Origin: a virus
Taxonomy: Duplodnaviria > Heunggongvirae > Uroviricota > Caudoviricetes
DNA: 16,397 nucleotides
Reading direction: 5' to 3' (one strand)
Virus record (IMG/VR): IMGVR_UViG_2778261693_000004
Span: 1-16,397 of that record
In this document: positions 167 through 15,858 of the stretch, in pieces
Layout of the letters: each line of letters starts with the position of its first letter
Position numbering within the stretch: position 1 is the first letter of the stretch
Translations under genes and position numbers: made by a program
Notes under the pieces: generated by a model
What the model saw: only the letters and a program-made list of their open reading frames with translations
What the model was told of the DNA's origin: nothing
Databases searched by the model: none

Positions 167-501
167 ACAGGAGGGACAGCTGATAGAAACAGAAGCCACT
201 GGAGCACCTCAAAAACACCATCATACACTAAATCAGTAAGTTGGCAGCATCACCAGCCTCATTTTGATGTCATTATTAGCAATTTAAAAAAGTTATGTCC
301 GAATATCATCGCTGAAGGCGTCGAAAACATTGATTGTCATAAGTTATCAAAAGGGATAGGGCTATGGGGCACTCAGGGATATTTTTTCCCATCAATTCCG
401 CTGACGGAGATTGAGTCCATAGATAGTAAGTGGCTATCAGATTTATGAGATGCAGAGAGTTAGGATATTGATATGAACATCTAAGCACCTCATTACTGTG
501 C

Positions 502-2314: not shown

Positions 2315-3346
2315 CTAATCGCCATCTTCCAGAAGGCGCACCATTGCCCCTGTTTCACTATCCAGGTTACGGATATAGTTCATGACAATATTTACGTTGG
2401 TCCAGCCACCAGCTTGCATGATCTCCGGTATTGAAACTCCGGCACGGGCCATATCTCGCGCGGCTCCGACACGGGCACTGTGTCCAGACCAGGCCAGGTA
2501 CCTCTGGCCAGAGTCATCCTTAGCCCCGTAAATCAATCGGTGAGTTGCTTCAAAAATCCCTTCCAGGGCGCGAGTTGATAGCTGGCTGGTGGGTGATGGC
2601 GAGGCAACACCATTTTTTCTGACCCGGCAAAACAAGTAGTTATTCGGATCATCAGCCACACCAGAGACAGAAATCCATCGTTCGACCAGTTTAGTTACCC
2701 CCAGGCTAAGTGCCTTCTCTACACCCGCGGTACTAACCAGAGTTTTCGTTCTGCCAATATGGATTAGCATTCTCCCACCGTCTGTACGTGAGATATCTTT
2801 AACCCTGATCCTGGCAATTTCGGCTATACGTAACAGGGTGTTATAAGCGATCCCCAGAAATGCCAGATTACGTATATCCTGGCAGCGATCGCTATTTTCC
2901 ATGAGTGAACGAACCTGGTCGAAATCAGTGCGTTCGAACGCCAATGCCTGTTTTGCACGTTCACCGGCATCAACGTTTTCTTTTCGAATCCGCCGCATGA
3001 CCAGTGAAACAGCATTGCTGTCACTTGGTCGTGGCAGCCCGGACCGACGATGAAGCATGTTTAGCTGGCCCAAATGTTGCTGGATAGTTTTTACTGCCAG
3101 ACCGCGCGCCTGAAGATATAGAAGATAATCGCGAACATCTTCAGGTTCTGCGGGAAACCACTTCCGGTTATTCAACTTGCACCATGCCGCCCACGACCGG
3201 CAAACGGACAGAAGCATTTTCCAGGTATGCTCAGAAAACGCCTGGCGATCCCTGAACATGTCCATCAGGTTCTTGCGAACCTCATCACTCGTTGCATCGA
3301 CCGGTAATGCAGGCAAATTTTGGTGTACGGTCAGTAAATTGGACAT
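2315..3346 (-). CDS. cre: Cre site-specific tyrosine recombinase
   Basis: 343-aa translation (MSNLLTVHQNLPALPVDATSDEVRKNLMDMFRDRQAFSEHTWK…MVRLLEDGD) is recognisable along its full length as P1 Cre. loxP lies about 420 bp upstream. Confidence 0.97.
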   Translation of the reverse strand: MSNLLTVHQNLPALPVDATSDEVRKNLMDMFRDRQAFSEHTWKMLLSVCRSWAAWCKLNNRKWFPAEPEDVRDYLLYLQARGLAVKTIQQHLGQLNMLHRRSGLPRPSDSNAVSLVMRRIRKENVDAGERAKQALAFERTDFDQVRSLMENSDRCQDIRNLAFLGIAYNTLLRIAEIARIRVKDISRTDGGRMLIHIGRTKTLVSTAGVEKALSLGVTKLVERWISVSGVADDPNNYLFCRVRKNGVASPSPTSQLSTRALEGIFEATHRLIYGAKDDSGQRYLAWSGHSARVGAARDMARAGVSIPEIMQAGGWTNVNIVMNYIRNLDSETGAMVRLLEDGD

Positions 3347-3353
3347 TTAACAC

Positions 3354-3575
3354 TCAGACAATAGTTTTAAGTAAAGTGTACAGGATTGGCTCTGCCTTTA
3401 CCTGTTTATGGTTCTCGTCATAGAAACGCCAGCGACCGCGCGTGCGTTCTATTTTCTCTTCACCGCGCGATAATGACAGTTGGCAACTATCACGATCAAA
3501 CCCTTTTGCCCGCCAGTAACCACGGTTTTTCTCAAGCTCAAGATGAGTGGACACTTTAGCAGCTGAATATCCCAT
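3354..3575 (-). CDS. Small ORF (73 aa) immediately upstream of cre and translationally coupled to it
   Basis: ATG at 3573-3575 preceded by GAGGTG 4-5 nt upstream. Stop lies 7 nt before the cre ATG. Basic protein (MGYSAAKVSTHLELEKNRGYWRAKGFDRD…). Confidence 0.35.
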   Translation of the reverse strand: MGYSAAKVSTHLELEKNRGYWRAKGFDRDSCQLSLSRGEEKIERTRGRWRFYDENHKQVKAEPILYTLLKTIV

Positions 3576-3671
3576 TTTTCACCTCTGATTGATTGGTGGT
3601 GCTAAGTGCGCTACGCGAAATCTGGAGCACTAACACTGCCAACATTTCGCAGATTTTACGTAGCGCAACCT

Positions 3672-3693
3672 TGATCAAATGATCAAGTGATCA
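3672..3693. promoter_or_regulatory. Cluster of three TGATCA (Dam GATC) sites in the cre upstream region
   Basis: TGATCA at 3672-3677, 3680-3685 and 3688-3693, with a fourth at 3741-3746. Consistent with the reported Dam-sensitive cre promoter region. Confidence 0.5.
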
Positions 3694-3764
3694 CTATTTG
3701 ACCTGATAAGGTATTGAACTGTATGGATTTACAGGTAAATTGATCATGTTCAATAACCCTTAAG

Positions 3765-3798
3765 ATAACTTCGTATAATGTATGCTATACGAAGTTAT
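3765..3798 (+). other. loxP: loxP recombination site
   Basis: Exact ATAACTTCGTATA-ATGTATGC-TATACGAAGTTAT. Confidence 0.98.
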
Positions 3799-3841
3799 CA
3801 GGTCCGAAGAGGAGTTTACGTCCAGCTGCGCACAAAAATCA

Positions 3842-3858
3842 AGAATTATTAGAGCAAT
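3842..3858 (-). promoter_or_regulatory. C1 operator (Op99-like) upstream of coi
   Basis: agaattATTAGAGCAAT, 15/17 to the reverse-complement consensus. Confidence 0.7.
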
Positions 3859-4179: not shown

Positions 4180-4389
4180 ATGGCTTTCATTCAACCAACC
4201 ATCGACGACGTTAGACATTGCTCTAACGCTTTATCTGTAGACCCTGCCGAAACCGACGCTGCCCGCACCATTGCTGAACACTACTCAAAGATATCCAATC
4301 AGGACTACCGCATCACCCAAGACGACCTGGATGACCTCACTGACACAATCGAATATCTCATGGCAACTAACCAGTTAGCCTCACAATAA
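4180..4389 (+). CDS. coi: Coi, C1 inactivator
   Basis: 69 aa, the length I recall for P1 Coi. Sits directly upstream of c1 with flanking C1 operators. GAGG Shine-Dalgarno. Confidence 0.75.
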   Translation: MAFIQPTIDDVRHCSNALSVDPAETDAARTIAEHYSKISNQDYRITQDDLDDLTDTIEYLMATNQLASQ

Positions 4390-4405
4390 ATGCACTAATA
4401 AATCT
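4389..4405 (+). promoter_or_regulatory. C1 operator-like site between coi and c1
   Basis: aATGCaCTAATAAATcT, 14/17 to consensus. Confidence 0.5.
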
Positions 4406-4499
4406 ATTATTTTTGTTTGATCCCTCTATAATATAGGTCAGTAATGACCGGTTTTCTCAGCCGGGCGTTATTGACCATGTCAATTCTGGAGGAGGATCA

Positions 4500-5351
4500 A
4501 TGATAAATTATGTCTACGGCGAACAACTGTACCAGGAGTTCGTCAGCTTCAGGGATCTCTTTCTAAAAAAAGCTGTTGCACGCGCCCAACACGTTGATGC
4601 CGCCAGCGACGGTCGTCCTGTTCGCCCGGTTGTCGTTCTGCCGTTCAAAGAAACGGACAGCATTCAGGCTGAAATTGATAAATGGACTTTAATGGCGCGG
4701 GAACTGGAACAGTACCCAGACCTCAATATCCCAAAGACTATTTTATATCCAGTGCCTAACATCCTTCGCGGTGTACGTAAGGTTACAACTTATCAGACAG
4801 AAGCTGTGAACAGCGTCAACATGACCGCTGGCCGCATTATTCATCTGATTGATAAGGATATTCGCATCCAAAAAAGCGCGGGGTTCAATGAGCACAGTGC
4901 GAAATACATAGAGAACCTGGAAGCAACAAAAGAGCTAATGAAGCAGTACCCGGAGGATGAAAAATTCCGTATGCGCGTACACGGCTTTAGCGAAACAATG
5001 CTGCGCGTCCACTACATTTCCAGTAGCCCTAACTACAATGATGGTAAATCAGTTAGTTACCATGTGCCACTGTGTGGCGTGTTTATCTGCGATGAAACCC
5101 TCCGTGATGGAATCATCATCAACGGTGAATTCGAGAAAGCAAAATTTAGCCTTTATGACTCCATAGAACCGATCATCTGCGACCGCTGGCCGCAGGCAAA
5201 AATATATCGCCTGGCAGATATTGAAAATGTAAAAAAACAAATTGCCATCACTCGCGAAGAGAAAAAGGTCAAATCAGCCGCATCAGTTACGCGCAGTCGT
5301 AAAACTAAGAAGGGGCAGCCAGTAAACGACAACCCCGAAAGCGCGCAATAA
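4500..5351 (+). CDS. c1: C1 prophage repressor
   Basis: 283 aa, the length I recall for P1 C1. GGAGGAGG Shine-Dalgarno. Follows coi, about 0.7 kb from loxP. Window carries nine copies of its operator motif. Confidence 0.85.
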   Translation: MINYVYGEQLYQEFVSFRDLFLKKAVARAQHVDAASDGRPVRPVVVLPFKETDSIQAEIDKWTLMARELEQYPDLNIPKTILYPVPNILRGVRKVTTYQTEAVNSVNMTAGRIIHLIDKDIRIQKSAGFNEHSAKYIENLEATKELMKQYPEDEKFRMRVHGFSETMLRVHYISSSPNYNDGKSVSYHVPLCGVFICDETLRDGIIINGEFEKAKFSLYDSIEPIICDRWPQAKIYRLADIENVKKQIAITREEKKVKSAASVTRSRKTKKGQPVNDNPESAQ

Positions 5352-13831: not shown

Positions 13832-13918
13832 TTACCCATGTGCGACGATGCCGCCAAAAGTGATAGAGAACAGCCAGAAATAGATCGCGGCCATAATGAT
13901 TTTGAATGCCGTGTTCAT
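13832..13918 (-). CDS. Small hydrophobic peptide (28 aa), first ORF of the operon
   Basis: MNTAFKIIMAAIYFWLFSITFGGIVAHG with AGGAG 9 nt upstream. Its stop lies 9 nt before the ASCH gene's ATG. Confidence 0.3.
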   Translation of the reverse strand: MNTAFKIIMAAIYFWLFSITFGGIVAHG

Positions 13919-13945
13919 ATTTTCAGCTCCTGTGATTGATTGGAT

Positions 13946-14595: not shown

Positions 14596-15858
14596 TCAGC
14601 GAACGTAAATAGTGCCGCCGTTCACTTTTTCCCATGCATCGCTAAGTGCATAGCAAACATCAAGAAGTCTTCTTGCCGCTGTTTCCTCTAAACCCAATTC
14701 GACAACCAACTGCTCATGACGGCGGGTAACCACATCAAACAGGGTATGCAGCCCTTTAGCTGCCAGATCATCAATAAATTCCGGTTCGAACGGCAGCTCT
14801 GCATCTGCCAACATAACCTCTTGCGCCCACTCAACTCGACGGACCAGTTCCGGGCGGCGGCTTTCCATCTCTTTACAGATCAATTCATGGAAGAACTCTA
14901 CCCAACCTTCCGGCTGGAACTCGCGGAAAATTGCCAACGGCTGGAAGTTTGGCATCAACCATTCGTTGATTCGGATATCAATGGCATAGCCCATGTCGCA
15001 GCAGAACTGATAAGCAAAGTCCAGCTTAGAAACGATATAAGGACGCTCGTTATTGAACTCTTTAGGCGATGAGATCCCATAAGCCAGGAGGCGCGGGAAG
15101 AATGAGATTTGCCCTAACGTCGGATGGAGTTTGCTTGCAGGAAAACGGCGCTCAGTAATGCCATACATTTCCTTCTTGAGCGTCGCAAATTTAGCATTTT
15201 CATTAACCAGCGCGGTAACCTCTGCTTTTTTATTAGCAAATGCCACGCGCGCTTCGCTTGCATCTTTAATAGTTTTTTTGAGCTGTTGGTTAAGATCGGC
15301 GACCTGCTTACGCAGTTCCTGTCGCTCGCTTTTAGCTTTGTTATAGCGTTTCTCAAGGTTAAAAGGATCAAGTTTCATGATCTCTTTATATTGAGATTTT
15401 AGCGTTGAAATCTGTGAGTTCCGCAGTTCAACCATCGCGGTCATTTCATTGAGTTTTGTTTCCAGCTCAATGCTTATACGTTCGGCATTATCAGCACGCT
15501 GGTTGGCGTCATGCGTCGCATCGTCGATCGCGTCCTGTTGCTGGCGTTTCAAATGTTCAATTTGCAGCTGAAGCTCTTCAATTTCTTTACCCTTCAGACC
15601 GAGATCCAACTGCATATTTTCAGCTGCATCTACCAGGGAGTTATGGCTATCAGCTTCTGCGTTATAAACATCAATAAGCTGTGCGTGAAGCATCTCCGCT
15701 GACTGAACCGCATTATCAAAAAAACGCGCTGTGAGGTCATCACAACTAACGCGGCGTTGCGCGGCCCGGATGTTCTGGATAATGGCCGGGATACCGGCAT
15801 TCAGGACGTCAGGGATAGATACATTTTCGATTGATTGGTTTTGTGCTGAAGTGCTCAT
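14596..15858 (-). CDS. Hypothetical 420-aa protein, N-terminal coiled-coil plus a C-terminal globular domain
   Basis: Long ORF; residues about 80-220 are heptad-rich (…EIEELQLQIEHLKRQQQDAIDD…). Sequence not recognised. Confidence 0.65.
   Translation of the reverse strand: MSTSAQNQSIENVSIPDVLNAGIPAIIQNIRAAQRRVSCDDLTARFFDNAVQSAEMLHAQLIDVYNAEADSHNSLVDAAENMQLDLGLKGKEIEELQLQIEHLKRQQQDAIDDATHDANQRADNAERISIELETKLNEMTAMVELRNSQISTLKSQYKEIMKLDPFNLEKRYNKAKSERQELRKQVADLNQQLKKTIKDASEARVAFANKKAEVTALVNENAKFATLKKEMYGITERRFPASKLHPTLGQISFFPRLLAYGISSPKEFNNERPYIVSKLDFAYQFCCDMGYAIDIRINEWLMPNFQPLAIFREFQPEGWVEFFHELICKEMESRRPELVRRVEWAQEVMLADAELPFEPEFIDDLAAKGLHTLFDVVTRRHEQLVVELGLEETAARRLLDVCYALSDAWEKVNGGTIYVR

Follow-up and report, generated by a model that had tools for sequence, protein, structure and literature searches.

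The DNA analyzed here is a stretch of 16,397 nucleotides of a tailed-phage record (the whole of it is called the window below), and it belongs to a phage-plasmid of the P1/P7/SJ46 type, in the orientation opposite to that of the P1 reference. A lox site, the small gene cra and the recombinase gene cre follow each other on one strand in the order lox-cra-cre, with cra ending just before cre, and this layout matches that of the P1 record AF234172. The features of the locus are the following.

3764..3797, no strand assigned: loxP, from the sequence and an inverted-repeat search.
3673..3692, no strand assigned: three GATC (Dam) sites over the -35 element of pR1, at 3673, 3681 and 3689, from the sequence; two of them are Dam sites 2 and 3 in AF234172.
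3653..3678, minus strand: promoter pR1 (P3cre), -35 TTGATC, which contains a GATC, and -10 TAAAAT; AF234172 104..129, hexamers read in the window.
3607..3667, no strand assigned: 18-bp inverted repeat with arms at 3607-3624 and 3650-3667 that are 89% complementary, from an inverted-repeat search.
3587..3596, minus strand: CCAATCAATC, a conserved motif of the leader immediately preceding the cra Shine-Dalgarno (SD) sequence, one of four exact copies in the window.
3580..3585, minus strand: GAGGTG, the SD sequence of cra, with 4 nt between it and the ATG; predicted anti-SD duplex -7.1 kcal/mol.
3354..3575, minus strand: cra coding sequence, 73 aa, stop included, with the ATG at 3573..3575 and the TGA at 3354..3356; from the ORF listing, P1 homology and PHROG 804.
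3470..3499, minus strand: promoter pR2 (P2cre), inside cra, -35 TTGATC (GATC at 3494..3497) and -10 CATTAT; AF234172 283..312.
3358..3382, minus strand: promoter pR3 (P1cre), in the last cra codons, -10 TATTGT over the T-I-V codons; AF234172 400..424, X03453 449..473.
3347..3353, minus strand: cra-cre intercistronic spacer GTGTTAA, 7 nt, from the sequence.
2315..3346, minus strand: cre, a tyrosine recombinase of 343 aa, ATG at 3344..3346, no usable SD sequence; from the ORF listing, best anti-SD duplex -2.5 kcal/mol.

The promoters were mapped from the AF234172 annotation (window coordinate = 3782 minus the P1 coordinate), and their coordinates rest on that annotation because a consensus promoter and terminator scan of 3250..3850 called nothing, pR1 included. 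According to the P1 annotation, cra would be transcribed only from pR1, which bears Dam sites and lies next to loxP, and cre would additionally be transcribed from pR2 and pR3 within the cra coding sequence, with pR3 expected to give an almost leaderless cre mRNA. A fourth GATC upstream of cra is found at 3742. At 3689-3692 the window reads GTGATCAC where P1 reads GTGACCAC (GACC in P1), which makes the third GATC of the cluster and gives one extra potential Dam site.

The initial annotation, made from the sequence alone, had described an unrecognized ATG-initiated ORF of 73 codons with a GAGGTG ribosome-binding site, a 7-nt gap to the cre ATG and a small basic product, lying between the Dam-site region and cre and co-expressed with the latter. 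Every described element was correct when compared with the sequence and the ORF listing: the ribosome-binding site lies four bases before the ATG, GTGTTAA separates the cra TGA from the cre ATG, the product has 15 K/R against 10 D/E (pI 9.6), the GATC cluster and loxP are upstream with cre downstream, and both genes are in the same transcription unit. The accompanying statement that no gene is annotated here in P1 was wrong. The ORF is, very probably, the gene cra, which opens the cra-cre transcription unit of P1. Megablast with 3200..3800 returned 20 phage records at ≥80% query coverage and 97-99.7% identity, and the DNA of the region was 97.6-99.7% identical to that of P1, P7 and SJ46-type phages (97.6% to P1). 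The protein was 97% identical to P1 Cra (AAQ13977 / YP_006471), with two nonsynonymous differences from AF234172, A5T and V73I, and the PHROG 804 profile matched it over its full length (E = 1.3e-34, residues 3-72 against profile positions 1-71 of 72). The label at this ORF is “cra: Cra” in the P1 records AF234172, AF234173 and NC_005856, “Cre-associated protein” in RCS47, phiW39 and SJ46, “Upf0.2” in P7, and “pot. ORF1 (aa 1-73)” in X03453, the cre sequence of 1986 (Sternberg et al. 1986). AF234172, like NC_005856, has it at 207..428, and AF234172 notes a “putative cre associated function”. The ORF that separates loxP from cre is also called cra in a figure legend of PMC2409434, and in a genome-wide CRISPRi study that cited the 1986 paper, knockdown of cra gave an EOP of 0.66 and the gene was scored non-essential for plaque formation (PMC10695390). 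So cra is not novel, having been known as ORF1 since 1986 and annotated for decades, and the finding of the ORF adds nothing new because cra was annotated in 1986 and 2004.

Homologues of 71 aa that are 58-63% identical to Cra were found in Salmonella, Klebsiella, Enterobacteriaceae and Cronobacter phage-plasmids (loci L003-L011, and gene_61 of Cronobacter phage JK004). They are like the window in that cra lies 7 nt upstream of a cre whose product is about 80% identical, and in having a leader with GATC sites, the inverted repeat and CCAATCAATC. The lox sites of these relatives were also compared. The Salmonella loci L003-L005 have a lox at 1467-1500 with the spacer ACACACAT instead of GCATACAT, the loxP spacer is kept in L006-L008, and the lox arms are identical to those of loxP throughout L003-L008; a search of L009-L011 for the loxP-arm pattern gave no match. 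By alignment, the pR2 hexamers were not conserved in the L003 lineage, and L003 has TATAAT at the -10 position of pR3. The relatives differ from the window in the genes that precede cra.

1934-3004 in L003-L011 and L014, strand not given: orf356 (PHROG 7674), in the relatives.
1688-1894 in L003-L005 and about 1697-1904 in L006-L008, strand not given: orf68 (PHROG 19934), in the relatives.

The 356-aa gene stands before cra and its stop overlaps the cra start (ATGA); the 68-aa gene stands upstream of the 356-aa gene in L003-L008 and is absent from L009-L011 and JK004. Both orf68 and orf356 are missing from P1, P7 and the window, and neither had a recognizable family beyond PHROGs 19934 and 7674, respectively. 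The leader from lox to CCAATCAATC is common to the window, P1 and the relatives, and the cra SD sequence follows CCAATCAATC directly in P1; in the relatives, orf68 and/or orf356 lie after the motif. This arrangement suggests that P1 lost orf68/orf356, or that the relatives gained them, at the point marked by CCAATCAATC.

The check proposed with the initial annotation was conservation and Ka/Ks across P1-like genomes, and cra passed it, as the frame was kept and pN was far below pS. By the Nei-Gojobori method (NG86), comparison of the window with L003, L006 and L009 gave a pS of 0.68-0.78, which is saturated, and a pN of 0.22-0.28, and dN/dS among the relatives was 0.07-0.27. Differences at codon positions 1/2/3 numbered 18/13/41, 22/15/43 and 19/15/40 in the three lineage comparisons, and no frame but that of cra was open throughout the four lineages compared. 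The P1 clade was sampled as 82 loci from IMG/VR and GTDB genomes. The intact 73-aa ORF was present in 82 of 82, with a gap to cre of exactly 7 nt in 82 of 82. There were 26 distinct cra alleles in the clade (27 sequences with the window's own), with 16 synonymous and 13 nonsynonymous changes, which gave per-site rates of about 0.33 synonymous versus 0.076 nonsynonymous and a ratio of about 0.23; the same measure for cre was about 0.08 (115 synonymous, 29 nonsynonymous). Judged by these substitutions, cra is a genuine protein-coding gene and is under purifying selection, somewhat more relaxed than that on cre. In two of the 82 loci (among L021-L102) cre was truncated to 38 and 204 codons and cra was intact. 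The cra-cre junction was present in 693 of 5426 complete E. coli genomes (~13%).

These data also bear on whether the ORF could be an untranslated open frame that arose by chance across the promoter region of cre. The two annotated promoters inside cra could conserve the DNA without any protein being made, and a dispensable role in plaque formation would agree with that. But the divergence was biased to third positions with pN far below pS, the length and start were conserved across lineages with saturated synonymous sites, and the pR2 hexamers were not conserved, yet the Cra protein was. We give the chance frame practically no credence; the substitution pattern rules it out and we regard it as effectively refuted.

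The initiation regions of the two genes were compared by their predicted anti-SD pairing. The pairing of cra was -6.4 to -12 kcal/mol in every lineage, versus +0.7 to -2.5 kcal/mol for cre in four of five lineages, with the exception of L015, which has a usable AAGGA before cre (-5.9 kcal/mol). The cra-cre gap in the diverged lineages was 7, 7, 7 and 8 nt, and the spacers differ by lineage (GTGTTAA, GCAGACA, CTAACTT and GGATCCCC). The 7-nt gap and the gene order are kept in the Salmonella, Klebsiella, Enterobacteriaceae and Cronobacter elements, and the 8-nt gap occurs in a metagenomic contig with 39% identity in Cra and 64% in Cre. On this comparison, the position of cra 7-8 nt ahead of cre predates the divergence of Cre to 64% identity, and the cra-cre linkage is old and conserved.

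The strong cra SD sequence, the near absence of a cre SD sequence and the conserved spacing mean that the layout fits coupling by termination and reinitiation, and two characters of coupled gene pairs were found, namely a very short, conserved stop-start distance and, in four of five lineages, a second gene without an effective ribosome-binding site. Translational coupling of cre to cra, as the initial annotation had proposed, is thus plausible on sequence grounds, with the caveat that 7-nt gaps are common in operons and are weak evidence alone. With slightly better than even confidence we would expect that, on pR1 transcripts, ribosomes ending at the cra stop re-initiate at the SD-less cre ATG. 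Were that so, it would be the strong initiation region of cra that fixes the low level of Cre made from the pR1 transcript. Coupling would explain only part of Cre synthesis, because transcripts from pR2 and pR3 bypass the translation of cra. A literature search found no experimental proof of cra-cre coupling or of Cra production.

If coupling operates, the act of translating cra could be all that matters, so that cra would serve as a leader cistron bringing ribosomes to cre, with a peptide that has no function of its own. Such a role would draw on the same contrast between a cre without SD sequence and a strong cra SD sequence, and on the conserved spacing. It would not account for purifying selection on the amino-acid sequence of Cra, for the segments GYWRAKGF and LYTLLKTII, which remain invariant or nearly so at saturated synonymous divergence, or for homologues that end their operon and have no following gene with which they could be coupled. 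We consider a functionless peptide highly improbable, and the amino-acid conservation together with the homologues that have no downstream gene rules it out.

The leader of cra contains two elements besides the ribosome-binding site. The 18-bp inverted repeat sits between pR1 and the ribosome-binding site, and its arm at 3650-3667 overlaps the pR1 -10 element (TAAAAT). The arms are conserved in P1, L003, L006, L009 and L014 and the 25-nt loop varies, and only 1 of 19 pairs of the whole predicted leader structure was compensatory. Such constancy of the arm sequences, with hardly any compensatory pair, would suit a protein-binding DNA site (operator) better than an RNA hairpin. No Rfam match was obtained for the whole window. 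One protein that might bind there is Cra itself, which would then be an autoregulator that binds the repeat over the pR1 -10 element and limits cra-cre transcription. Conservation of the arms across lineages in which the loop and flanks have diverged would be in keeping with this, as would the single compensatory pair and the fact that the arm at 3650-3667 holds the pR1 -10 element, which means that the pR1 transcript would lack that arm. We nevertheless rate autoregulation as improbable.

The second element is CCAATCAATC, which occurs exactly in the window at 1888-1897, 3587-3596, 13934-13943 and 15829-15838, all on the minus strand, when 0.07 copies would be expected. It was also found in L003 (1668, 1907 and 4864) and in L009 (1908 and 4863), where it precedes orf68, orf356 and one other gene. 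Copies of the motif are usually found after a hairpin or inverted repeat, at a distance of 10-30 nt from the start codon that follows (that of cra, of a 28-aa ORF, and of orf68/orf356). It has no annotation in the P1 record, and may be a leader, processing or regulatory element. The 28-aa ORF, MNTAFKIIMAAIYFWLFSITFGGIVAHG, is hydrophobic, lies at 13832-13918 on the minus strand with an AGGAG SD sequence, and is preceded, at 15 nt, by a GC-rich hairpin and a copy of CCAATCAATC; its product may be a small membrane peptide.

The Cra family is very small: an exhaustive HMMER profile scan of 1.84 billion representative proteins gave 16 hits. The full-length members were 65-79 aa, and the other hits were shorter fragments and one spurious ankyrin-repeat protein; a profile scan of genome contigs gave 3 loci. 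PHROG 804 was matched by 21 of 21 aligned members. The invariant or nearly invariant residues are E13, K16, G19, W21, R22, A23, K24, G25, F26, R37, I42, W49 and L65, and the Cra of the window has all the family motifs, which are E-x-x-K-x-x-G-[YF]-W-R-A-K-G-F, R37 and W49 (alignments A1, A2 and A3). Many homologues (clusters P0002, P0005, P0006, P0024, P0030 and others, and RefSeq plasmids such as NZ_CP022733.1) carry the name “creatininase” at NCBI. This identity was rejected, as Cra has only 73 aa and no Pfam or NCBIfam match, and the name seems to be a mistaken annotation that may have spread from the gene symbol.

Members away from cre are found in SSU5-like phage-plasmids (SSU5_068, CYRAN_62 of Cyrano, and several Klebsiella elements). 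They match PHROG 804, are 70 aa long and about 38% identical to Cra, share GYWRAKGF and the C-terminal LLKK, and are annotated “Putative Cre-associated protein”, and their host elements are phage-plasmids as well. They differ in that no recombinase adjoins them; instead, each closes an operon of small ORFs and is followed directly by an iteron field of CCACTGTAGTGAGTA-like repeats and then by a convergent repA or helicase gene. In L012 (Salmonella phage SSU5), the field directly after the Cra homologue spans approximately 4210-4830 and holds some twelve CCACTGTAGTGAGTA-like repeats, some in one orientation and some in the other, which are presumably plasmid iterons. Other family members lie beside umuDC-like genes or in unrelated phage regions. 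On these contexts, “Cre-associated” is a description of the P1 group and not of the whole family.

Searches for the function of the protein gave little. Pfam returned only a sub-threshold CENP-H match (E = 0.13), with none at E ≤ 0.1 for any of the 21 members, NCBIfam and PADLOC had no match to Cra, and the best hit of a sequence profile search of the PDB was spurious (E = 0.087). The predicted fold is alpha2-beta5-alpha, and Foldseek comparison of this prediction with viral structures found only other small uncharacterized phage proteins and no convincing structural relative. Since the SSU5-like homologues adjoin iterons without a recombinase, and since cra is dispensable for plaques, we tentatively read Cra as an accessory of the plasmid-prophage state, small and with a regulatory or nucleic-acid-binding role, and not as a catalytic partner of Cre, although we attach a low probability to this reading. 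A more specific and more speculative model, in which our confidence is lower still, is that Cra is the founding member of a small enterobacterial phage-plasmid family and has plasmid-maintenance DNA as its target. In P1, this would mean binding to the inverted repeat at pR1 and tuning of cra-cre expression, and hence of dimer resolution after replication; in SSU5-like elements, the target would be the replication iterons or DNA close to them.

Cre-lox is among the most used tools of genetics, and the small gene cra has long travelled with cre. The value of the present analysis lies in clean selection evidence for cra, in the SD-less start of cre and in the family members found away from cre. 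The initial annotation was half right: there is a real, co-expressed, plausibly coupled gene for a small basic protein, but the gene was already known.

Among known systems, a parallel in gene arrangement is that of lambda Xis and other recombination directionality factors (RDFs), which likewise are small basic proteins whose genes stand directly before that of a tyrosine recombinase and are expressed together with it. Cra could by analogy be an Xis-like directionality factor or accessory that modulates Cre at lox, given that it is small and basic, is encoded immediately upstream of cre and co-transcribed with it in an old and conserved linkage, and that other tyrosine recombinases are modulated by small basic proteins encoded just ahead of them. 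On the other side, no excisionase or HTH family was matched by any of the 21 members in Pfam or NCBIfam, the predicted fold is not a winged helix, and some homologues have no recombinase gene in their vicinity. Cre needs no other protein to recombine loxP, whether in vitro or in heterologous cells. An Xis-like role is disfavoured because the family is not tied to cre and Cre is self-sufficient, and we consider it quite unlikely; membership of the Xis/RDF family itself was ruled out by the missing family match and the different predicted fold. The nearest known counterpart is P1 Cra, which is the same gene. It differs by a few substitutions, and the pR1 region of the window has one more GATC than that of P1; the length of 73 aa, the position between loxP and cre, the SD sequence, the 7-nt gap and, by alignment, the internal promoters are all as in the window.
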